NCBI GenBank assembly: GCA_036741755.1
Contig: DAINRP010000002.1
Coordinates: forward strand, 1 to 36,908
Origin: Gemmatimonadales bacterium
GTDB taxonomy: Bacteria; Gemmatimonadota; Gemmatimonadetes; Gemmatimonadales; GWC2-71-9
Length of the DNA stretch: 36,908 bases
Direction of reading: 5' to 3'
Shown here: positions 2,701 through 34,063 of the stretch, piece after piece
How positions within the stretch are numbered: position 1 is the stretch's first letter
Layout of the letters: each line of letters opens with the position of its first letter
The notes under the pieces: model-generated
What the model saw: the letters and a program-made list of their open reading frames with translations, nothing else
What the model was told of the DNA's origin: nothing
The model's database searches: none
Position numbers and translations under genes: made by a program

Positions 2701-3627
2701 CTAACTGACGCCCACGAGACTCGCGGCCAGCGCCCGGATCCGATCGCTGTCCGGCACCGCCTCGACCCAGCGTCCGGGGACGGCGCGCTCGCCGTCCCGG
2801 GCACCCATCAGTCCGCCGGCGACGGCCGCGTTGGTGTCGGTATCTCCGCCGGCGTTGACCAGCCACAGCAGCCCGCGTTCGAGGTTTGGCTCGTGATAGG
2901 CAAACCAGAGTGCGATCTCCACCCCATGCACCACGTATCCCGCCGCGGCCCCCACGACCGGCAGTTCCTCCTTCTTCTCCAGTGGCACCCGGCGGACCGC
3001 CGCGAGCAGTTCCGCGGGCGCCTGATTGCTGGTCAGCGACTCGACCACATCCCCGATGAAGTCGCGCCGTCCCTGCAGGAAACAGGCGGCCGCGACATTC
3101 ACCGCCACCGCGCCCCAGGCGCAGCGCTCATCCGGATGCGTCAGCACCGCGGTGTGATAGGTCCCGCTGATGAGATTCGCCGGCTGAGCGAAGGTACGGA
3201 GCGCCACCGGCAGACAGCGCGAGATCGTCCCGTTGCCGGCCTGCCCGCCGGTGGACGTCGGCGGCGAGTCGTGGGTGCGGATGTGACGCAGCGCCGTCCT
3301 GGTCCACACCCCGATCCCGCGACCATCACGCTCGGCCCACTCGGCCCAGCGCATCGCGAGCCGATGGAGATCGACCTCCGGCTCGAGCAGCTCTTCGGCG
3401 AGAATGAGCGTGAGCGCGACGTCATCATCATAGGGCGAGTCGGGACGGTCCTCGCGCAGGAGCTCGCGGATCCCGCCGGGAAATTCGGCCGCGATCCGCT
3501 CGGCCGTCCCGAGAAACTCGGTTGGCACACCGAGTGCGTTACCGGCTGCGTGTCCGAGCAGCGCGCCCCGTGCGCGACTGGCGAGATCGGGAGCATTCAT
3601 GAGTACGATTACCAGAGAGTCCGACAT
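2701..3627 (-). CDS. ADP-ribosylglycohydrolase family protein
   Basis: Carries GALLGHAAGNALGVPTEF at the N-terminus, a PYDDD segment, and the C-terminal GGDTDTNAAVAGGLMGA metal-site motif. The start could instead be the ATG at 3600 (MNAPDL...). Confidence 0.85.
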   Translation of the reverse strand: MSDSLVIVLMNAPDLASRARGALLGHAAGNALGVPTEFLGTAERIAAEFPGGIRELLREDRPDSPYDDDVALTLILAEELLEPEVDLHRLAMRWAEWAERDGRGIGVWTRTALRHIRTHDSPPTSTGGQAGNGTISRCLPVALRTFAQPANLISGTYHTAVLTHPDERCAWGAVAVNVAAACFLQGRRDFIGDVVESLTSNQAPAELLAAVRRVPLEKKEELPVVGAAAGYVVHGVEIALWFAYHEPNLERGLLWLVNAGGDTDTNAAVAGGLMGARDGERAVPGRWVEAVPDSDRIRALAASLVGVS

Positions 3628-6274
3628 GCGCCGAGGTGGGGCCAGGCCGCCAGCCGAAGGGGGCCAACCCGTTGGCGCCCCTAAGGTAACCGCGCCCGCC
3701 GAGCCGGGGCCATCGGGCAGTCGGGCAGCCAGCCTCAGTCGGCTGGCCCCCTTCGCGGCGGCTGGATTCTTCGGCCTGGCACTCTGGGGCGTCCACCACG
3801 CACTCGCCGGCGTGAGCTACGGGACACTCTGGCACGCCATTCTGTCCGTGGGACCCAATCAGCTCGCGCTCGCGGGCCTCCTCGCGGTCTTCGCCTATGT
3901 CGCACTGACGGGCTACGACGTGCTGGCGCTACGGTACGTCAAGCACCCGCTGGACTACCCCCGCACCGGTCTCGCCTCGTTTATCGCCTTTGCCTTCAGC
4001 AACAGCGTGGGGCTCGCCCTGCTGACCGGCGCCTCGGTGCGTACCCGGCTCTACTCCGCGTGGGGCCTGCCCACGCCGCTCATCGGACGCATCGTGGCCT
4101 TCGGTGCCGCGACGCTGTGGCTGGGAGTGCTGGCCGTGGCGGGGACGGCTCTCGTGGCGGAGCCAGCAACCATTGCCACCCTGGCGCATGCGCCGCGGTG
4201 GGCCATGCTGCTCGCCGGACTCGGCTGCCTCACGGTCGTCGCGCTGTACTTCGGCTGGTGCGGGCTCTGGCGCCGGCCGCTGGCGATCCGCGGCTGGCGG
4301 TTCGAGCCGCCCTCACTGCCAATTGCGCTCGGTCAGCTCACGGTGTCGGTGTTCGAGTGGCTCGCCGCAGCGGGCATCCTCTACGTGCTGCTGCCGGCGG
4401 GGACGGGAATCTCCTATCCGGCATTCGCCGGCCTCTTCGTCGTTGCCCAGGGGCTGGGTCTCGCGAGCCATGTGCCCGGCGGATTGGGCGTGTTCGAGGG
4501 GACGATGCTGGTGCTCGCGGGACAGCGACTGCCGGTGACGGCACTCGCGGGCGCGCTGCTCACCTTCCGCGCGATCTACTATTTCGCCCCGCTGCTCGGC
4601 GCCACCATCCTGCTGACCGGGCACGAAGGGCTGCGGCACCGCGCGCTGCTCGGGCGCGCGTCACGCGCCATCGGCCGGCTGGTCCCGGTCTTCACCCCGC
4701 CGCTCCTCGCGATCACCGTCTTTGCGACGGGCAGCATCCTGCTGATGTCGGGGGCCACCCCGACCTCCGCGTGGCGGCTGGAATTGCTGCGGGAGATGGT
4801 TCCGCTGCCGGTGCTCGAAGCGTCGCACTTTCTGGCGAGCCTCACCGGCGCCGGACTGGTGCTGCTGGCCTACGGCCTGTACCGGCGCCTGAACGCCGCA
4901 TGGTGGCTGACCACCATGCTGCTCGCCGCGGGCGCCATCACCTCCATGCTGAAGGGCCTCGACTTCGAAGAGGCCACGGTGGCCGTGCTCGCGCTCGGGG
5001 CCCTGCTGCCCGCCCGGGCGGCGTTCACCCGGCGGAGCTCGCTCCTCGAAGAGCCCTGGACTCCCGGCTGGGGAATCGCGGTCGCTGTCGCCCTGGGCAC
5101 CTCGGTCTGGCTCGGCTTCTTCGCCTATCGTCATGTCGACTACTCGAACAGCCTCTGGTGGCAGTTCGAGTTCGGCGCCGATGCGCCCCGCTTCCTGCGC
5201 GCCACGGTGGGCGCGATGAGCGTGGCGCTCCTCCTCGCCCTGGTCCGGCTGCTGCGCCCCGCGCGTCGGGTGCACGTCGCGCCGACCGCGGAAGATCTGA
5301 CGCGCGCCACCGCGATCGTCGCCCGCCAGGGTCAGGCGCTGGGCAACCTCGCCTTGCTCGGCGACAAGACCCTGCTGTTCAATGACGCGGGCACGGCCTT
5401 CCTGATGTACGCGGTCCAGGGTCGCAGCTGGATCGTCATGGGGGATCCCATCGGCAGTGACGAGGATGCCGCCGATCTCGCGTGGAGATTCCGCGAAATG
5501 GTGGACAGCGTCGGCGGATGGCCGGTGTTCTACGAAGTGAGCCGCCATCGGCTGCCCATCTATCTCGAGCAGGGCCTGAGCCTCGTGAAGCTGGGAGAGG
5601 AAGCCCGGGTTCCGCTGCCGACCTTCTCGCTCGAGGGGAGTTCGAGGGCGCGATTCCGCAACTGGCGCAATGCCGCGGAGAAGGCGGGTTGTCAGGCCGA
5701 AGTGCTGCCCGCGGGCTCGAGCGACACCCTGCTCGAGGATCTCCGCCGGATCTCCGACGACTGGCTCGCCGCGAAGCGGACGCGGGAGAAGCGCTTTTCA
5801 CTCGGCGCATTTTCCCCCGATTACCTGCGCCGCTGCCCCATCGCGGTGGTACGCCAGCACGGCCGGCCGGTGGCCTTCGCGACGCTCATGACCACGGACA
5901 CCAAGGACGAGCTGACCCTCGACCTGATGCGTTACGCCGCGGATGCGCCGCCCAACGTCATGACCTATCTGCTGGTGCAACTCATGCTCTGGGGCCGGAG
6001 CAACGGGTATCGGTGGTTCAGCCTTGGCATGGCGCCGCTCGCTGGACTCGAGCAGCGGGCCCTGGCCCCGCTCTGGCATCGTGCCGGCTCATTCGTGTTC
6101 CGGCAGGGCGAGAGCTTCTACAACTTCAAGGGCCTCCGCGATTACAAGGACCGCTTCGACCCCCTCTGGGAGCCGCGGTATCTCGCGTCGCCCGGCGGAC
6201 TCGCCCTGCCCTTCATTCTCGCCGACATCGCCGCCCTCATCGGGGGCGGCATCAAGGGAGTCTTCGCCAAATGA
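3599..6274 (+). CDS. mprF: Bifunctional lysyl-phosphatidylglycerol flippase/synthetase (MprF/LpiA family)
   Basis: 891 aa. It has a long polytopic N-terminal membrane domain plus a C-terminal aminoacyl-PG synthase domain (FSLGAFSPDYL..., WFSLGMAPL..., FYNFKGLRDYKDRFDPLWEPRYL). An alternative start is the ATG at 3626. Confidence 0.9.
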   Translation: MSTITRESDMRRGGARPPAEGGQPVGAPKVTAPAEPGPSGSRAASLSRLAPFAAAGFFGLALWGVHHALAGVSYGTLWHAILSVGPNQLALAGLLAVFAYVALTGYDVLALRYVKHPLDYPRTGLASFIAFAFSNSVGLALLTGASVRTRLYSAWGLPTPLIGRIVAFGAATLWLGVLAVAGTALVAEPATIATLAHAPRWAMLLAGLGCLTVVALYFGWCGLWRRPLAIRGWRFEPPSLPIALGQLTVSVFEWLAAAGILYVLLPAGTGISYPAFAGLFVVAQGLGLASHVPGGLGVFEGTMLVLAGQRLPVTALAGALLTFRAIYYFAPLLGATILLTGHEGLRHRALLGRASRAIGRLVPVFTPPLLAITVFATGSILLMSGATPTSAWRLELLREMVPLPVLEASHFLASLTGAGLVLLAYGLYRRLNAAWWLTTMLLAAGAITSMLKGLDFEEATVAVLALGALLPARAAFTRRSSLLEEPWTPGWGIAVAVALGTSVWLGFFAYRHVDYSNSLWWQFEFGADAPRFLRATVGAMSVALLLALVRLLRPARRVHVAPTAEDLTRATAIVARQGQALGNLALLGDKTLLFNDAGTAFLMYAVQGRSWIVMGDPIGSDEDAADLAWRFREMVDSVGGWPVFYEVSRHRLPIYLEQGLSLVKLGEEARVPLPTFSLEGSSRARFRNWRNAAEKAGCQAEVLPAGSSDTLLEDLRRISDDWLAAKRTREKRFSLGAFSPDYLRRCPIAVVRQHGRPVAFATLMTTDTKDELTLDLMRYAADAPPNVMTYLLVQLMLWGRSNGYRWFSLGMAPLAGLEQRALAPLWHRAGSFVFRQGESFYNFKGLRDYKDRFDPLWEPRYLASPGGLALPFILADIAALIGGGIKGVFAK

Positions 6275-28724: not shown

Positions 28725-29366
28725 ATGACCTACGCCGTCAAGGAAATCTTCTATACCCTCCAGGGCGAGGGAGCGAACGCCGGCCGGCCGGCGGTGTTCT
28801 GTCGCTTCGCCGGCTGCAACCTGTGGACGGGCCGTGAGGCGGATCGGGACGGGGCGATCTGCCAGTTCTGCGACACCGACTTTATCGGGACCGACGGCCC
28901 GGGCGGCGGCACCTTCAAGACGGCAGCCGAGCTGGCGCGGGCGGTCCGCGCCGCCTGGCCCGCGGTCACTGCCCCGGCGGCGCAGCCGATGGTGGTCTGT
29001 ACGGGAGGGGAGCCGCTGCTGCAGCTCGATGCGGCGGCCATCGCGGCGCTTCACGGCGAAGGCTTCGAGATCGCGGTCGAGACCAACGGCACGCAGCCGG
29101 CGCCCCGCGGCCTCGACTGGATCTGCGTGAGCCCGAAGGCCGGGGCACCGCTGCTGCAGACCGCCGGGCATGAACTCAAGCTGGTGTTTCCGCAGCGGGG
29201 CGCCGAGCCGGAGCGCTTCCGCGGGATGGCGTTCCAGCATTTCTTCCTGCAACCGATGGACGGACCCGACCGCGCACGGAACACCGCGCTGGCGGTTGAC
29301 TACTGCCTGGCTCACCCCGAGTGGCGATTGAGCCTGCAGACCCACAAGATGCTGGGTATTCCATGA
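28725..29366 (+). CDS. queE: 7-carboxy-7-deazaguanine synthase (radical SAM)
   Basis: EIFYTLQGEGANAGRPAVFCRFAGCNLWTG... fits the CxxxxxxxxxxxxxCxxC-type QueE cluster, with LSLQTHKMLGIP at the C-terminus. The start is placed at the ATG at 28725. Confidence 0.9.
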   Translation: MTYAVKEIFYTLQGEGANAGRPAVFCRFAGCNLWTGREADRDGAICQFCDTDFIGTDGPGGGTFKTAAELARAVRAAWPAVTAPAAQPMVVCTGGEPLLQLDAAAIAALHGEGFEIAVETNGTQPAPRGLDWICVSPKAGAPLLQTAGHELKLVFPQRGAEPERFRGMAFQHFFLQPMDGPDRARNTALAVDYCLAHPEWRLSLQTHKMLGIP

Positions 29367-29962
29367 ACCCTGGCTATTCGGATCGGATCGCACACGCTCT
29401 CGCCTTCAGCGCGAAACATGGCGCGGCCCGGGCGCGGCGCGGCAGCGGCGGCAGCTGGCTCACCCAGCCGGCCAACGTGGCGGTGATTCTCGCGCGTTAC
29501 GGCGCGGACGAGGTCACGATCGTGGCGGGCATCCTCAGCTCGCTGCTCAACGAGACCGAACCGTCCCTCCGGCCCGAGATCATGCAGAAGGTCGGAGTGA
29601 AGTTCGGCGAGCGGGTGGTGGAGCTCCTGCGGCAGGTGGTGGAGCCGCGCTACGACGCCCGCGGGAAGGAGCGAAGCTGGGAAGCCTCGAAGATGGACTT
29701 TCTGGCGGGGCTGACCGCGGCGGACCCGCGGGCGCTCGAGGTCTGCGCGGCCAATGAGATCTTCCAGTGCGGCGCCGTGGTCACTGACGCCCGCCGCCTC
29801 GGGCCCGAGTACCTCTCCGGCTACGCCCCCGGCGGGGCCCCCGCCCTGCTGCGCTGGTTCCACGGTGTCGTGGATGCCCTGGAACGGCACCCGACCGGAC
29901 CGCGCCCCGGCATGCTCGCTGAATTGCGCGGGCTGACGAGCCGACTCAGCGAAATCGCCTAG
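29363..29962 (+). CDS. SpoT/Mesh1-like HD-domain homolog with substituted metal-binding motifs
   Basis: The ATG overlaps the queE stop (ATGA). It aligns by eye to the RelA/SpoT hydrolase core. HP is replaced by QP, LLHD by ILSS, and EDT by NET, while FGERVVELL is retained. Confidence 0.6.
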   Translation: MNPGYSDRIAHALAFSAKHGAARARRGSGGSWLTQPANVAVILARYGADEVTIVAGILSSLLNETEPSLRPEIMQKVGVKFGERVVELLRQVVEPRYDARGKERSWEASKMDFLAGLTAADPRALEVCAANEIFQCGAVVTDARRLGPEYLSGYAPGGAPALLRWFHGVVDALERHPTGPRPGMLAELRGLTSRLSEIA

Positions 29963-30234
29963 CGGAGGAGCAGGAGCGCCGCCTCGCTGCTTCGATCGGG
30001 GAGGCGCGCATCGGCGCCGCCGCTGGTGGCGACCGCCAGCCCCCACGCAACATGGCGGTCGTCGCCCCGATGCATGCCGCCACCCCGCCCAGCCCCAGCT
30101 TCAAGTCAGCCATGCACCCTTCGGTGAGACCCGCGTGTGCCGGAACTCAACCAGCATGGGCGGGCGGCAGAGTCCAGGGGAGCCGCGCCAAACGCTCGCC
30201 TCACTGTGAGCCTATCGCTATATTGCCCAACAGG

Positions 30235-31575
30235 ATGGAATCTCCCTCAGCACTCTCCGCACTGGCCTCGATCCCGGGGGCCTTCGCCGCCGCCTGCCGC
30301 CACGCCCGCACGGACAGTGAACTGTTCGAGCGCTGTCGTGACGCCCTTGCAGAGCGGTTCGGCAGCGAAAAGATCTGGTTCAGCGTCAACTCGCCGGGCG
30401 CGATGATGACGCTGCTGCCTCCCCCCGACTGGCTGCCTGGCGGGGTCGAAGTGGTGCGTCTCGCCAGCGGGCAGACCGAGATCGCCATCTTCGCCGACCC
30501 CTCGGTTGCCACCGAGCTCCGCGGGCATGCCACCCCGATCGCACTCGGCCTCTCGGTGATGCTCGAGCTGCATGCCGTGCTCCGGGAGCGGCAGGGCCAG
30601 CTCGACGACGCGGTGTTTCAGCTGCGCGCGCTCCGCCAGGTGGCGCGGCTCCTCTCCTCGGTCCATTCGGCCGAAGAGACGGAGAACCTGATCCTGGATT
30701 TCATGGCGGAGGTGTTCTTCTGCTGGTGGGCCTGCCTGTACCGGCCGCTGGGCGACATCTATCTGCCGAAGGTGGTGCGGTCGCTGAAGGGCTCGATGTC
30801 GCTCAATCCGGTCGACCGCGCTGCACTCGACGACGCACTGGTCCCGGATGTGCCCGTCTCCACGATGCAGGACGTCTCGATCGGCAAGCTGTTCCCGGCG
30901 ACGACGCAGATCGTGGTCTCGCTCGACGCCGGCGCGGAACGGCTCGCCGTGATGGCGCTGGGCCCCCGGCTCCACGATCAGTCGTTCGGCCCCGCCGAAT
31001 GCGATCTCGCGGGGACGCTCGCTTTCGCGGCGGCGATCGCCCTCAAGAACGCGCAGCTGGTCGAGCAGCTGCAGAACGCCGCGAGCACCGATCCGCTGAC
31101 CGGGCTTTCCAACCGCCGCGCGATGGAGCAGCGCCTCAGCGCGGAGCTGTCCCGCACCAAACGGCACCAGATCAAGACCAGCGTGGTCATGATCGACGTC
31201 GACCGCTTCAAGCTGGTCAACGACACGCTGGGCCATGGCGCGGGTGACCGGCTGCTCGCCGAACTCGCTCGCCTCCTCAAGCAGCAATGCCGGACCCTCG
31301 ATGCCGTGGGCCGCATGGGCGGGGATGAATTCCTGGTGATCCTGCCGATGACGACGACCGCGGAGGCGATGGTGTTCGTGGAGCGGGTCAGGGTCGCTGT
31401 CGGCCGGCTGGAACAGTCCCACCCCGAATTCGGCCGACCCTCACTCAGCATGGGCATCGCCGAGGCGCCGCGGCATGGCGTCACTCCTGACGCCGTCATC
31501 GGCGCGGCCGACGCCGCGCTCTACCGTGCGAAACGGGGCGGGCGCAACGCGGTCGAGACCGCCGAAGGAATCTGA
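30235..31575 (+). CDS. Diguanylate cyclase (GGDEF) with an N-terminal GAF-like sensor region
   Basis: DPLTGLSNRR, DVDRFKLVNDTLGHGAGD, an intact GGDEF, and an I-site RTLD five residues upstream of GGDEF. The start is uncertain: the ATG at 30235 (MESPSALS...) or the ORF-track start at 30052. Confidence 0.85.
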   Translation: MESPSALSALASIPGAFAAACRHARTDSELFERCRDALAERFGSEKIWFSVNSPGAMMTLLPPPDWLPGGVEVVRLASGQTEIAIFADPSVATELRGHATPIALGLSVMLELHAVLRERQGQLDDAVFQLRALRQVARLLSSVHSAEETENLILDFMAEVFFCWWACLYRPLGDIYLPKVVRSLKGSMSLNPVDRAALDDALVPDVPVSTMQDVSIGKLFPATTQIVVSLDAGAERLAVMALGPRLHDQSFGPAECDLAGTLAFAAAIALKNAQLVEQLQNAASTDPLTGLSNRRAMEQRLSAELSRTKRHQIKTSVVMIDVDRFKLVNDTLGHGAGDRLLAELARLLKQQCRTLDAVGRMGGDEFLVILPMTTTAEAMVFVERVRVAVGRLEQSHPEFGRPSLSMGIAEAPRHGVTPDAVIGAADAALYRAKRGGRNAVETAEGI

Positions 31576-31577
31576 TT

Positions 31578-32144
31578 GTGCCGGACGAGGAATTCCTCCT
31601 TCTGGGCGAGGCCCTCTGGCTGGAATTCGTCAACACGGCGGAGTCCCCTCCGGTCGGTCGCGACTCCCTGAGCGATCCGGGAGAGTACCTCCGCTGGACC
31701 AAGGCCGTTCGGATCGAACCGCCCAGAGATGCGTCGGCGTTCGATGACGCGCTCACCCTCCGCACCAGGCTGCTCGCGCTGGCGCGCGCCCTGGATACGG
31801 GCCGCAATCCACCGCCCTCGGCCATCGAGGCGATCAACCGGCTGCTGGTCGGCATGGAAGGCCGGGAGCAGTTGGTGCGGGTCGGCGGCAACTGGCAGCT
31901 CCGCATCCAGCCGGTCCGTCCCCCAAGTGCGCTGGAAGCGGTGGCGCAGTCCGCCGCGCAGACCCTCGCCAACCCGATCGCGGTGATTCGCCGCTGTGCC
32001 AACCCGGGCTGCGGGCTCTACTTCTCCGACGAATCTCCCAACCAGTCACGGCGCTGGTGCAGCCGCAGCCGGTGCGGGGACACCGGCCGCATCGAGCGGC
32101 GGCGAAATACCCCGCGTCCCACCCCGATGATCACCGAGGGGTGA
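31578..32144 (+). CDS. CGNR zinc-finger protein (ABATE N-terminal domain plus C-terminal zf-CGNR)
   Basis: GTG start 8 nt after AAGGA and 2 nt after the GGDEF stop. C-terminus CANPGCGLYFSDESPNQSRRWCSRSRCGDTGRIERRR, where the CGNR core reads CGDTGR. Confidence 0.8.
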   Translation: MPDEEFLLLGEALWLEFVNTAESPPVGRDSLSDPGEYLRWTKAVRIEPPRDASAFDDALTLRTRLLALARALDTGRNPPPSAIEAINRLLVGMEGREQLVRVGGNWQLRIQPVRPPSALEAVAQSAAQTLANPIAVIRRCANPGCGLYFSDESPNQSRRWCSRSRCGDTGRIERRRNTPRPTPMITEG

Positions 32145-32154
32145 GGCTCCATCG

Positions 32155-33912
32155 ATGACCACACCGCCGCCGCTCACGATCTTCGAGCGCGTGGAGGCTG
32201 CGCTGGGCCACCGGTTCCGGCTGGAAACCATGGTCGCGGCCTCCCGGGAGCGGGTGCTCTTTACAGCGCTCGACGTCCTCCTCTCCCGCCGCGTCTCTCT
32301 GCGCGTCAATCTCTACCCCGATGACCGGACCCGGGCCTGGTTCCTCCGTGAGGCGGAGGCCCTGGCCCAGCTCGATCATCCCGCGATCCGCCACGTCTAC
32401 GACGCCGGCATCATCGGAGACCTCGCCTTCCGGGTGGGCAACTGGATCGAAGGGGAGAGCCTCAAGGAGGCCACGCAGCGTGGCCCACGGCCCTTCCCCG
32501 CCGTGCACATTCTTGCCCGCGACGTGCTGAGCGGGCTGGAACACGCCCACGCACACGGGATCATCGTGCGGCGCATCGCGCCAACCTCCCTCCTGGTGAA
32601 TCTCGCCGGCCGTGGCACGGTCACCGACCTGCGGTTCTGCAACTGGACGCTGCCCACGATTCCGCCTGGCGAGGTCACCGGTGCGCAGTCGTTCCTCGCG
32701 CCGGAGATCCGGGCAGGCGCCGCCGGCGATCCCACGAGCGACATCTACACCGCCGGCGCGATCCTCTACTTCGCGGTGACCGGTCAGGAGCCGCCGCTCG
32801 ACTCGAACGAGCTGAAGCCGCCCTCCGCGCTTCGCCCCAATTGTCCGCAGGCGATCGAGCGCATCCTGCTCCGGTCGCTCCGGCCGGACGCCGACGATCG
32901 CTACCTCACGGCGGCGGAGATGCTGGACGATTTCGCCTCGGATGCGGGGACCTTCGAGAATCCGGCGGTGATGGTGCAGGTCAATTCCCGGCTCCTCGCC
33001 GGCGAGAGCGAAGAAGGACGCCACTGGGAAAAGCGGCTGCGCCGGGCGCTGGGCGACGATTACGAATTGCTGTCGCCGCTCGGCCGCGGCGGATACGGCC
33101 GCGTCTACCGGGTGCGCGACCTGCATCTCGAGCGCGAGGTCGCCCTCAAGGTGCTGCACCCCCACCTGACCGCCGATCCGGCCGTCGTGGAGCGGTTCCG
33201 CCGCGAGGCGCAGCTCGCGGCCCGGCTCAACCATCCGAACATCGTCGCGATCTACGACATCGGCGGCCGGGCGGGGATGCTCTGGTACACGATGGAGCTG
33301 GTGAAGGGCCCGAACCTGGCGCAGCTGGTGGAGAAGGAGGGGCCGCTGCCCCTGGAGCGGGTGGTGCGCCTGCTGCGCGAGTCGCTCAGCGCGCTCTCCC
33401 AGGCCCATACCGCGGGCCTGGTGCACCGCGACCTCAAGCCGGAGAACATGCTCATCGACCAGACCATGAGCGTGCAGATCACCGACTTCGGACTGGCGCT
33501 GGCGCTGCGCGGGCAGGGCCGCTTCGGCGGGGCGACCAGCCAGAGCGGGACCCCCATGTTCGCCAGCCCCGAGCAGCTGCTCGGCGAGCGGGTGGACCAG
33601 CGCTCCGACCTCTACAGCCTCGCGGCGGTCGCCTACTTTGCCCTGCTGGGCGAGCCCCCGTTCAGTGGAAAGACGGTCGAGCAGGTGCTGACCCGGCAGA
33701 CGAACAACCAGTACCCCGAACTGCGCGCGCGGCGCACGGACCTGAGCGAGGATGTCGCCCTGGTGCTGGAACGGGCGATGCACGCCGAGGTGGAACAGCG
33801 GTATCCCTCGGCGACCGAATTCCTCCAGGCCCTGAACCGGGCCACCGGCAAGGGGCTCCGGCGGCGGAGCGGGGAGTGGGCCAAGGCGGCCCTCCGATGG
33901 TGGAAGCCCTAG
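32155..33912 (+). CDS. Soluble tandem pseudokinase-kinase Ser/Thr protein kinase
   Basis: The C-terminal half (aa ~303-560) carries GRGGYGRVY, VALK, HRDLKPEN, DFG and SPE. The N-terminal half (aa ~20-260) is kinase-like, with the alphaC motif REAEALAQLDHPAI, APE and DIYTAGAILY. In that half the G-loop is lost, VAIK is replaced by VSLR, HRD by VRR, and DFG by DLR. Confidence 0.9.
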   Translation: MTTPPPLTIFERVEAALGHRFRLETMVAASRERVLFTALDVLLSRRVSLRVNLYPDDRTRAWFLREAEALAQLDHPAIRHVYDAGIIGDLAFRVGNWIEGESLKEATQRGPRPFPAVHILARDVLSGLEHAHAHGIIVRRIAPTSLLVNLAGRGTVTDLRFCNWTLPTIPPGEVTGAQSFLAPEIRAGAAGDPTSDIYTAGAILYFAVTGQEPPLDSNELKPPSALRPNCPQAIERILLRSLRPDADDRYLTAAEMLDDFASDAGTFENPAVMVQVNSRLLAGESEEGRHWEKRLRRALGDDYELLSPLGRGGYGRVYRVRDLHLEREVALKVLHPHLTADPAVVERFRREAQLAARLNHPNIVAIYDIGGRAGMLWYTMELVKGPNLAQLVEKEGPLPLERVVRLLRESLSALSQAHTAGLVHRDLKPENMLIDQTMSVQITDFGLALALRGQGRFGGATSQSGTPMFASPEQLLGERVDQRSDLYSLAAVAYFALLGEPPFSGKTVEQVLTRQTNNQYPELRARRTDLSEDVALVLERAMHAEVEQRYPSATEFLQALNRATGKGLRRRSGEWAKAALRWWKP

Positions 33913-34029
33913 TCGGGAATCCCCCTTGACGCCACGGCTGGAGGCCCCATTTTAGTGGCGGCTGGAAATGGCCAGAAGGCTTGGCCGGGTGGCATCCGAG
34001 CAGGGTTATTCCTCACCAGGAAGACTGCG

Positions 34030-34063
34030 CGACCCGGGCAACACTGAGCCCGGGTCGTTTTTT
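34030..34063 (+). terminator. Strong rho-independent terminator (10-bp stem, 8-nt loop, T6)
   Basis: CGACCCGGGC-aacactga-GCCCGGGTCG is followed by TTTTTT. It lies 118 nt after the kinase stop and 72 nt before the csp ATG. Confidence 0.85.

Follow-up and report, generated by a model that had tools for sequence, protein, structure and literature searches.

The kinase studied here is encoded on the + strand of the window, the name used for the whole stretch of 36,908 nucleotides that was analysed, and the gene comes from a soil bacterium of the Gemmatimonadales. It is the last member of a compact row of three co-oriented genes. The features of the locus and of the encoded protein to which the text refers are listed below together with the evidence on which each assignment is based.

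30052..31575, + strand: gene of a GGDEF-domain protein, predicted diguanylate cyclase (Pfam PF00990 with an E-value of 2e-45, translation, synteny)
31578..32144, + strand: gene of a protein with an ABATE domain and a CGNR zinc finger, putative stress-induced transcription regulator (Pfam PF07336 and PF11706)
32155..33912, + strand: tandem pseudokinase-kinase gene, complete including the stop codon (ORF list, GC3 of 0.90, two Pkinase matches)
32197..32940, + strand: N-terminal pseudokinase domain, aa ~15-262 (profile, alignment, AlphaFold, Foldseek, dN/dS)
32941..33024, + strand: interdomain linker, aa ~263-290, variable and predicted to be disordered (pLDDT, identity, dN/dS)
33043..33852, + strand: C-terminal canonical Hanks Ser/Thr kinase domain, aa ~297-566 (Pfam match at 303-558, conservation, Foldseek)
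33853..33909, + strand: conserved C-terminal tail, aa 567-585, GLRRRSGEWAKAALRWWKP (conservation and AlphaFold)
34029..34058, + strand: terminator-like GC-rich hairpin followed by a T run (consensus match only)

The kinase ORF starts with ATG, encodes 585 amino acids and is the one ORF of this stretch with a GC3 of the coding type (0.90); an antisense ORF of 550 aa that overlaps it was rejected as a high-GC artefact. Full-length homologues of about 585 aa form more than 120 clusters. The absence of a transmembrane segment, as described in the original prediction, is borne out by the Kyte-Doolittle maximum over 19 residues, which is 1.10.

The stop codon of the GGDEF gene lies 2 nt before the start of the ABATE gene, whose own stop codon is found 10 nt before the ATG of the kinase, and the three genes are probably co-transcribed, as judged from their spacing and orientation. 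In the GGDEF protein, the GGDEF motif is intact and an RxxD site is present, and an ORF with an HD_4 domain (RelA/SpoT-type HD) is located just upstream of the GGDEF gene. The GGDEF and ABATE genes directly precede the kinase in 60 of the 67 related loci that were compared; the GGDEF gene is present in 63 of them, and the remaining four are devoid of both genes. However, synteny extends over the entire region and also covers the housekeeping genes cspA-like, infA and pepF; the neighbours of the kinase comprise GGDEF, ABATE, CSP, IF-1 and PepF. Since all 67 loci also come from a single order, the adjacency to GGDEF and ABATE says little about a functional link. With this reservation, we infer that the two encoded proteins would be the most obvious candidate partners or substrates of the kinase in a module for stress or second-messenger signalling. 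The transcription unit probably ends at the hairpin at 34029..34058, 117 nt past the kinase stop codon, a consensus match of a kind whose count is at chance level (two sites found against 1.9 expected). The Rfam search of the window returned no riboswitch or other RNA element, and neither a PP2C phosphatase gene nor an FHA gene is located near the kinase in the window. A protein of 765 aa (P0083), which had the appearance of a "Rosetta stone" fusion of ABATE and kinase, was rejected because it has, in place of the CGNR zinc-finger region, a stretch that looks out of frame, and it is probably a frameshift or gene-call artefact.

Profile searches and an internal comparison agree that the protein consists of two kinase-fold halves. 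In the whole protein, the Pfam Pkinase model matches aa 303-558 with an E-value of 7e-62, and the N-terminal half searched alone gives a second Pkinase match at aa 61-218 (E-value 1.2e-13), in which the catalytic residues are degenerate, as had been anticipated. The NCBIfam PknB model aligns residues 16-261 of the N-terminal half to kinase positions 4-266 with an E-value of 9.5e-37, and an alignment of one half against the other spans both over their full length with 27% identity (E-value 6e-25). Other domains were not found in the Pfam and NCBIfam searches of the protein.

The C-terminal domain contains the complete set of signatures expected of a Hanks kinase, namely the Gly-rich loop G310-x-G312-G313-x-G315 (GRGGYG), K332 (VALK), E351, H424-R-D426-L-K-P-E-N431, D444-F-G446 and S-P-E473, as well as an activation-loop segment with T461/S462/S464/T466. 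The motifs already read from this half in the original prediction are thus present, and all catalytic residues of the domain are invariant in the 53 homologues with 70-98% identity that were used to assess residue conservation. Its Pkinase score is 209.6 bits compared to a cut-off of 31.7. In the AlphaFold model, pLDDT values are mostly 80-95 and drop to about 45-70 in the activation loop, and Foldseek aligns the domain to PknB with 40% identity and a target-normalised TM score of 0.80-0.88. By its motifs and fold, the C-terminal domain is a canonical PknB-like Hanks Ser/Thr kinase, which is predicted to be active.

In the N-terminal domain, the half-versus-half alignment places VAASRERVL opposite GRGGYGRVY, VSLR opposite VALK, VRRIAPTS opposite HRDLKPEN, DLR opposite DFG and APE opposite SPE, which are the same pairs that had been read by eye before. 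The Gly-loop is lost, R50 occupies the position of the beta3 Lys, V138-R139-R140 stands at the HRD position with R140 in place of the HRD Asp, S145 (S or A across homologues) takes the position of the catalytic Asn, and D158-L-R160 is found at the DFG position. The alphaC Glu (E66) and A-P-E (182-184) are kept. The earlier reading of DFG as DLR is accurate, but it does not amount to a loss of the DFG Asp: D158 is retained, the position being D in 44 of the 53 homologues and E in the other 9, so that this domain has lost two, not all three, of the classical catalytic residues. The arginines R50, R139, R140 and R160 are invariant across the 53 homologues and, together with R31 and R33, line the former nucleotide cleft; this cluster of six is invariant and under strong purifying selection. 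Modelled alone with AlphaFold, the N-terminal domain adopts a kinase fold in the best of five models, the only confident one (pLDDT 88.9, pTM 0.86; the other four reach no more than 55-60), and its best PDB matches in Foldseek are the kinase domains of PknB and PknA from Mycobacterium tuberculosis with TM scores of 0.76-0.81, which agrees with the fold originally proposed for this half. When a pseudokinase is defined as a kinase fold that lacks at least one of the beta3 Lys, the HRD Asp and the DFG Asp, the N-terminal domain is a pseudokinase by this sequence definition, with the fold kept and the residue losses conserved. The architecture that had been proposed, an N-terminal pseudokinase followed by a C-terminal active-type Hanks kinase, is therefore supported by motifs, profiles and folds alike.

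The N-domain signature of LR, VRR, TDLR and APE-R persists in a representative of only 51% identity (P0122). Together with the invariance in the 53 homologues, this shows that the substitutions are not sequencing errors, and the homologue survey thereby speaks for conserved degeneration rather than isolated errors. The dN/dS values range from 0.02 to 0.12 for the N-domain compared to 0.01 to 0.135 for the C-domain, so that purifying selection on the N-domain, as estimated from the sequences, is equal to that on the active-type C-domain. The linker between them, which comprises about 25 residues with pLDDT below 50 at aa 264-286, shows a mean identity of 54% across homologues, high column entropy and dN/dS values of 0.09-0.29, i.e. 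more relaxed selection than in either kinase domain. In the C-terminal tail GLRRRSGEWAKAALRWWKP, W575, A579 and W582 are invariant and a short helix is predicted. At least 540 GTDB species representatives carry a member of the family; the 80 best of these all belong to the Gemmatimonadales, and the family is probably specific to this order.

Among characterised kinases, PknB and PknA of M. tuberculosis are closest to both domains in sequence and fold, with 40% identity for the C-domain and 26% for the N-domain. In contrast to them, the Gemmatimonadales protein has neither a transmembrane helix nor PASTA or other sensor repeats, and it contains an additional, dead kinase domain in cis. The Stk1/PknB PASTA kinase model (NCBIfam NF033483) scores 401 bits against a cut-off of 450 and is matched only at profile positions 3-271 of 563; an identity as PASTA kinase was rejected, the score lying below the cut-off and the protein having no transmembrane segment and no PASTA match.

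The original prediction also called the design JAK-like. This applies to the domain order, as in JAK JH2-JH1 (e.g. TYK2, JAK2) a pseudokinase likewise precedes an active kinase in one chain, and to the idea of regulation in cis, but not to a structural relationship. Both domains are PknB-like and of the Ser/Thr type (HRDLKPEN) and their origin is independent of that of the JAK domains; FERM and SH2 domains are absent, since Pfam returns two Pkinase matches only, and the active domain is not of the tyrosine kinase type of JH1. JAK JH2 keeps the beta3 Lys and binds ATP, whereas the Gemmatimonadales N-domain has Arg at the beta3 Lys position and no longer contains a Gly-loop. For the full-length model, the 50 matches listed by Foldseek are single PknB, Aurora or MARK-type domains and include no JAK structure; the sole two-domain alignment among those listed is to EGFR-KDD with an rmsd of 11 Å. 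The full-length AlphaFold model has no confident interdomain arrangement (pTM 0.50, linker pLDDT below 50). With single-domain matches among those listed and no JH2-JH1-like packing predicted, structural kinship to JAKs was rejected. Plant tandem kinase proteins such as WTK1/Yr15, Sr62 and Pm57 are soluble proteins with two kinase folds, frequently with a pseudokinase as one of the two (PMC6170490, PMC8761531). They share with the Gemmatimonadales family the solubility and the restriction to essentially two kinase-fold domains, but they are eukaryotic immune receptors that arose as RLK-type fusions, often have the order kinase-pseudokinase and act with NLR helpers, and they show no sequence or contextual relationship to the family.

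Within bacteria, the design had been considered poorly described, which is fair with regard to the literature, but it is not rare, as tandem Hanks-kinase proteins are abundant in bacterial genomes and metagenomes. The best 150 matches in a representative library of 1.84 billion proteins are almost all multi-kinase-domain proteins, and dozens of uncharacterised families with 2-6 PknB-like domains in tandem can be distinguished. Named examples come from Gemmatimonadota, Acidobacteriota (Thermoanaerobaculia), Bacteroidota, Chloroflexota, candidate division KSB1 and Myxococcota including Sorangium. In several of these, the first kinase domain is degenerate and the second intact, a combination seen, for example, in P0167, P0216, P0338, P0344 and the Sorangium protein P0354. 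Other multi-kinase proteins differ in that they mostly have two apparently active domains (93/150 and 43/117) and carry additional TPR, WD40, PEGA, FHA or cyclase domains, which are absent from the Gemmatimonadales protein. The arginine signature V-R-R / D-L-R occurs only in the Gemmatimonadales family among the multi-kinase signatures listed. Neither the N- nor the C-domain shows a preference for the first or second domains of other tandem kinases, so that a common descent of the tandem arrangement finds no support. As proteins with two kinase domains are common in bacteria, the Gemmatimonadales design is an unstudied variant and not a unique invention.

Literature searches on two or tandem kinase domains in bacterial Hanks kinases yielded no relevant precedent beyond PglW of Streptomyces, in which an atypical kinase-like domain without an ATP site precedes an active Hanks Ser/Thr kinase domain (PMC4365076). 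The PglW profile is colinear with the query across the junction of both domains (profile 319-660, query 122-448). However, PglW of S. coelicolor has a length of about 1400 aa, contains a NERD nuclease domain as well as a long C-terminal region and acts in phage defence with PglX/Y/Z (Pgl / BREX type 2), whereas the Gemmatimonadales protein consists of two kinase folds only, is encoded in a housekeeping context and reaches 122 bits compared to a cut-off of 990. A 2025 review of bacterial pseudokinases, which covers the families ActPs1-3, GLW, CP1, DYD and DLHK as well as EssB/YukC and the MviN pseudokinase, mentions neither tandem architectures nor Gemmatimonadota (PMC12599244). These families have in common with the N-domain a bacterial Hanks fold, degraded catalytic motifs and presumed non-catalytic roles, but none is described there as fused to an active kinase domain, and the motif strings in Table 1 of the review differ from VSLR / VRRIAPTS / DLR (PMC12599244). 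A COG3899 ATPase domain invariably accompanies CP1 in physical linkage (PMC12599244), and membership in this family was rejected for a protein without any domain besides two kinase folds.

On balance, we lean towards regarding the protein as a soluble cytoplasmic Ser/Thr kinase of the PknB lineage, in which the transmembrane and sensor part may have been replaced by a dead kinase fold in cis that serves as a regulatory or scaffold module. We infer that the N-domain most likely functions as an in-cis regulatory or scaffolding pseudokinase for the attached kinase, possibly as a ligand- or phospho-binding module, and allosteric gating of the C-domain by it is plausible from the sequences. The most likely mechanism would be that the N-domain provides a built-in partner for the N-lobe "back-to-back" contact of PknB-type kinases, which would set the alphaC helix and activate the C-domain allosterically. 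In addition or instead, the arginine-lined cleft might be the binding site of an anionic ligand or of a phosphorylated segment, by which a signal would be coupled to the kinase output. In PknB, L33 and D76 belong to the back-to-back interface, a contact that positions alphaC (PMC13434768). Both positions are kept in the two Gemmatimonadales domains, as conserved L43 and D83 in the N-domain and conserved L325 and D368 in the C-domain. R10 of PknB, which we take to be a further residue of this interface, corresponds in the PknB alignment to the conserved R20 of the N-domain, but to D302 in the C-domain, so that the interface cannot be identical to that of the PknB homodimer. Neither a back-to-back pairing in cis nor another packing receives structural support from the AlphaFold model with a pTM of 0.50, as it contains no confident interdomain contact.

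A role of the N-domain as a mere scaffold for substrate docking or phospho-recognition, which would bind ABATE/zf-CGNR, other targets or the phosphorylated loop or linker of the C-domain and exert no allosteric control, is the less likely case, but one to be taken seriously. The HRD-Arg of RD kinases contacts a phospho-residue, and R139 stands at precisely this position with further arginines around it; the flexible linker would in turn let both domains move independently. However, the conservation pattern fits the allosteric model equally well. Pseudokinases are commonly scaffolds, in bacteria for example EssB/YukC (PMC12599244).

Somewhat further down the scale of probability, the N-domain could be the receptor of a nucleotide second messenger, for example c-di-GMP from the co-operonic GGDEF protein or (p)ppGpp, that switches the kinase on or off. 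D158 and the six conserved arginines lining the cleft would suit such a ligand, the GGDEF gene lies two genes upstream in the same orientation with gaps of 2 nt and 10 nt and is conserved in 63 of the 67 loci, and the HD_4 ORF precedes it. This case is purely circumstantial, though: no known c-di-GMP-binding motif or fold was found in the protein, the kinase occurs without the GGDEF gene in four loci, and the region-wide synteny weakens the argument from adjacency. To our knowledge, there is no precedent for a c-di-GMP receptor with a Hanks fold. That the arginine-lined cleft represents a new Hanks-fold sensor for small molecules or phospho-ligands, perhaps for c-di-GMP or an alarmone that the products of the adjacent GGDEF and HD genes synthesise or break down, and directly gates the fused kinase, is a shade more doubtful still; if true, signalling by nucleotide second messengers would be connected in Gemmatimonadales with the phosphorylation of the ABATE/zf-CGNR regulator on Ser/Thr.

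We regard it as very improbable that the N-domain catalyses another reaction, such as AMPylation or glutamylation as in SelO and SidJ, or an atypical Arg/Asp phosphotransfer. The non-canonical cleft residues are invariant, the metal-binding D158 and the alphaC Glu are retained, and repurposed kinase folds have precedents (PMC12599244), but the domain has kept neither the Gly-rich loop nor the beta3 Lys, the catalytic base or the catalytic Asn, and it resembles PknB rather than SelO or SidJ. Moreover, pseudokinases in which every ATP-binding element is missing almost never bind ATP (PMC12599244). An anti-phage defence kinase akin to PglW, MAD6 or PD-T4-6 is scarcely credible and was rejected on score cut-offs and gene context: although the NCBIfam and PADLOC models of these kinases give significant E-values and PglW too has an atypical kinase domain before the active one, the scores are far below the curated cut-offs (247 vs 460 for MAD6, 122 vs 990 for PglW) and reflect a generic kinase signal, no pglX/Y/Z, methyltransferase or other defence genes are located nearby, and the gene sits, in all relatives examined, in a stable housekeeping region with preserved synteny, unlike mobile defence islands.

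Hardly any work has been devoted to bacterial pseudokinases, and in-cis fusions of pseudokinase and kinase are left out of the recent survey of their families. For the classification of bacterial kinomes, it is of importance that bacterial metagenomes commonly encode proteins with 2-6 kinase domains. The family described here is a minimal protein of two folds, strictly conserved across a whole order of abundant soil bacteria, in which the dead site has been rebuilt with invariant arginines. It would offer a clean, soluble system in which to study the control of a Hanks kinase by a pseudokinase in the absence of eukaryotic accessory domains, and it allows a test of whether back-to-back activation of the PknB type can be hard-wired in cis.

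The 585-aa kinase contains two kinase folds in one chain, an N-terminal pseudokinase (N-domain, aa ~15-262) and a C-terminal Hanks Ser/Thr kinase (C-domain, aa ~297-566), which confirms the pseudokinase-kinase arrangement and the two profile matches expected in the original prediction. The Pfam protein-kinase domain matched twice, at aa 303-558 in the scan of the whole protein (E 7e-62) and in the N half scanned by itself (E 1.2e-13). The NCBIfam PknB model aligned its kinase positions 4-266 with aa 16-261 of the N half (E 9.5e-37), M. tuberculosis PknB sequences from the PDB aligned with aa 20-260 (E 6e-21), and the two halves could be aligned with each other across the entire kinase domain with 27% identity (E 6e-25). 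The motif pairs in this alignment were as follows.

Motifs of the two domains in the half-versus-half alignment
Gly-rich loop: C-domain GRGGYGRVY, N-domain VAASRERVL
beta3 strand: C-domain VALK, N-domain VSLR
Catalytic loop: C-domain HRDLKPEN, N-domain VRRIAPTS
Metal-binding motif: C-domain DFG, N-domain DLR
Activation-segment end: C-domain SPE, N-domain APE

The alphaC Glu is present in both domains. The residues had been described accurately from the sequence, with the nuance that the reading of DFG as DLR leaves the DFG Asp itself in place. A TM helix was ruled out, as had been predicted, since the maximum hydropathy is just 1.10 over 19 residues. The gene lies in a chromosomal stretch with a GC content of 67-70%, and its ORF (32155..33912, +) shows coding-type codon bias with a GC3 of 0.90. 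An overlapping antisense ORF of 550 aa (32131..33783, -) was rejected as a high-GC artefact, as coding-type GC3 is found only on the plus-strand ORF; many further long ORFs in the window are likewise such artefacts.

More than 120 clusters of full-length relatives (~580-595 aa, 70-98% identity) emerged when 5.8 billion proteins were searched; those with names originate from Gemmatimonadota or Gemmatimonadales MAGs, and 'serine/threonine protein kinase' is their sole annotation. When 53 full-length relatives were aligned, E32, R33, R50, E66, R139, R140, P143, T157, R160, P183, E184, R186 and D196 of the N-domain are invariant, R31 is found in 52 sequences, and at position 158, 44 sequences have D and 9 have E; K332, D426, N431 and DFG of the C-domain are also invariant. 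Even a relative with 51% identity (P0122) still contains ..LRV.., ..VRRLVP.., ..TDLRF.. and ..APELR.., so that the homologue survey proposed in the original prediction bears out the degenerate residues. Against nine relatives, the Nei-Gojobori dN/dS was 0.02-0.12 in the N-domain and 0.01-0.135 in the C-domain; in the linker between them it was 0.09-0.29. The conserved residues and the low dN/dS exclude a decaying duplicate or a sequencing error and, at the level of sequence, identify the pseudokinase as a selected, functional domain. The C-terminal tail GLRRRSGEWAKAALRWWKP (aa 567-585; 33853..33909, +) is also conserved, with W575, A579 and W582 invariant; it is predicted with low confidence as a short helix, which might serve for hydrophobic docking or, as an amphipathic helix, for membrane binding.

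In the full-length AlphaFold2 model, computed on the 53-sequence alignment, both domains were confident (per-block pLDDT mostly 80-95), whereas pLDDT fell below 50 at aa 264-286 (the linker) and at aa 449-465 (activation loop of the C-domain); no confident interdomain packing was predicted (pTM 0.50). When the N half was modelled alone, the best model reached a pLDDT of 88.9 and a pTM of 0.86, the remaining four only a pLDDT of 55-60. In Foldseek against the PDB, the top matches of the N-half model were the PknB and PknA kinase domains (TM 0.76-0.81, 26% identity). The full-length model matched single kinase domains, among them PknB (40% identity), and its sole two-domain alignment was with an EGFR kinase-domain-duplication structure at an rmsd of 11 Å. 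No JAK structure was among the 50 matches listed for this model. The proposed likeness to JAK JH2-JH1 therefore holds as an analogy of domain order only.

The design had also been considered rare in bacteria, which was overstated. An exhaustive HMMER search with the full-length kinase covered 1.84 billion 50%-identity representatives, and nearly all of the best 150 matches carry at least two kinase domains. Key catalytic positions were read per domain with an HMM built from these matches, a domain being classed as A if it retains all four (Lys, Asp, Asn, Asp) and as P if it has lost one or more. From N to C, 93 of the 150 are A-A, 12 A-P-P, 8 A-P, 5 A-P-A and 4 P-A, and 28 have other architectures (fragments, single domains, up to six domains). 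In a second search, a profile built from 45 tandem proteins gave 117 matches in the annotated collection (A-A 43, P-A 8, A-P 7). Its two-kinase-domain matches, frequently with TPR, WD40, PEGA, FHA or cyclase domains, come from candidate division KSB1, Gemmatimonadota, Thermoanaerobaculia, Bacteroidota, Chloroflexota and Polyangiaceae and from the isolate Sorangium sp. So ce315. Judged by these matches and taxa, tandem Hanks-kinase proteins, pseudokinase-then-kinase included, are widespread in bacteria. Compared with other tandem proteins, neither domain preferentially resembles their first or their second domains, which suggests independent origins, and the V-R-R / D-L-R arginine signature occurs, among the signatures listed, only in this kinase family and its fragments. 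Giant proteins in the representative library even string together 4-6 kinase-like domains (P0124, P0129 and P0134, ~2500-2600 aa; P0125 and P0128, ~1550 aa); in one such arrangement, two intact domains follow four degenerate ones.

A 2025 review of bacterial pseudokinases lists seven annotated families, ActPs1-3, GLW, CP1, DYD and DLHK, also covers EssB/YukC, SidJ and SelO, and mentions neither tandem fusions nor Gemmatimonadota (PMC12599244). A bacterial precedent for the atypical-then-active order is Streptomyces PglW, described in 2015, in which an atypical kinase domain without ATP site (aa 195-490) precedes an active Hanks domain with an essential Lys (PMC4365076). However, PglW is a 1400-aa defence protein, whereas the kinase here has 585 aa. 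The NCBIfam PglW and MAD6 models match it far below their respective cut-offs, the PADLOC matches are generic kinase matches and there is no defence-island context; it was therefore placed outside the PglW and MAD6 systems.

With one genome per GTDB species, relatives are encoded at no fewer than 540 loci, the best 80 of which all belong to Gemmatimonadales or Gemmatimonadaceae MAGs, except for one contig binned as Bacillota. This contig (L037, JBLMWC010000126.1, 'Bacillota bacterium MAG294') carries the full Gemmatimonadales block GGDEF-ABATE-kinase-CSP-IF1-PepF with 61-92% protein identity and is probably mis-binned. The kinase neighbourhood in the window is as follows.

29321..29962, +, ORF with HD_4 domain (RelA/SpoT-type HD hydrolase fold; Pfam E 1.2e-8), 90 nt 5' of the GGDEF gene
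30052..31575, +, GGDEF protein gene, GGDEF motif intact, RxxD site present
31578..32144, +, ABATE + CGNR zinc-finger protein gene, between GGDEF gene and kinase
32155..33912, +, tandem kinase gene
34029-34058, +, terminator-like hairpin 3' of the kinase, consensus match only
3' of the hairpin, cold-shock protein gene, then infA and pepF on the other strand

The GGDEF and ABATE genes are 2 nt apart and the ABATE gene and the kinase 10 nt. Both genes directly precede the kinase in 60 of the 67 related loci whose upstream sequence is long enough, which supports a GGDEF-ABATE-kinase operon. Its composition is not fixed, as ABATE lacks a normal match or placement in three loci (in L063 and L068 the GGDEF gene is directly upstream of the tandem kinase and the ABATE gene is absent; in L030 the ABATE match is truncated and the kinase start interrupted) and four others (L036, L042, L046, L049) keep the tandem kinase with neither gene directly upstream. 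Since the downstream housekeeping genes are equally syntenic and every locus comes from one order, this adjacency is weak evidence for a functional link to the kinase. Given the position of the HD_4 ORF, the order is HD - GGDEF - ABATE/zf-CGNR - pseudokinase/kinase, possibly a nucleotide-second-messenger module. An apparent ABATE-kinase fusion (P0083, 765 aa, ENA, 706-kb contig) is probably a frameshift or assembly artefact, because its CGNR zinc-finger segment is scrambled or replaced by unrelated sequence. The window has neither genes for PP2C phosphatase or FHA proteins nor an Rfam element; at 3599..6274 (+) it encodes an 891-aa protein with a C-terminal phosphatidylglycerol lysyltransferase (MprF-type) domain, which has no relation to the kinase.

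In the soluble chain, a flexible linker connects a dead kinase fold to an intact one in cis, and the N-domain has a rebuilt, arginine-lined cleft under selection. Most likely, the pseudokinase would regulate or scaffold the attached kinase. Dimerisation of PknB-type kinases is normally driven by TM and sensor parts; in a kinase without these, its own pseudokinase could serve as a permanent or switchable back-to-back partner. The N-lobe back-to-back dimer of PknB-type kinases is thought to pre-activate them by positioning helix alphaC, and both PknB and StkP lose their activity when the key interface residues L33 and D76 are mutated (PMC13434768). In the PknB alignment, R10, L33 and D76 of PknB correspond to R20, L43 and D83 of the N-domain, each either invariant or conserved to at least 90%, and to D302, L325 and D368 of the C-domain. 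R10 is a third residue of this interface. Alternatively, the cationic cleft (R31, R33, R50, R139, R140, R160 and D158) may bind a phospho-segment or an anionic ligand, for instance a nucleotide messenger supplied by the GGDEF and HD genes nearby, or the pseudokinase may merely dock substrates such as the ABATE/zf-CGNR regulator; unconventional catalytic activity is a further alternative. As the AlphaFold pTM is low, the model gives structural support to none of these readings, the back-to-back partner included. The proteins form an uncharacterised, order-wide family of minimal pseudokinase-kinases with a distinctive conserved arginine signature, moderately interesting as a tractable model of how pseudokinases function in bacteria.
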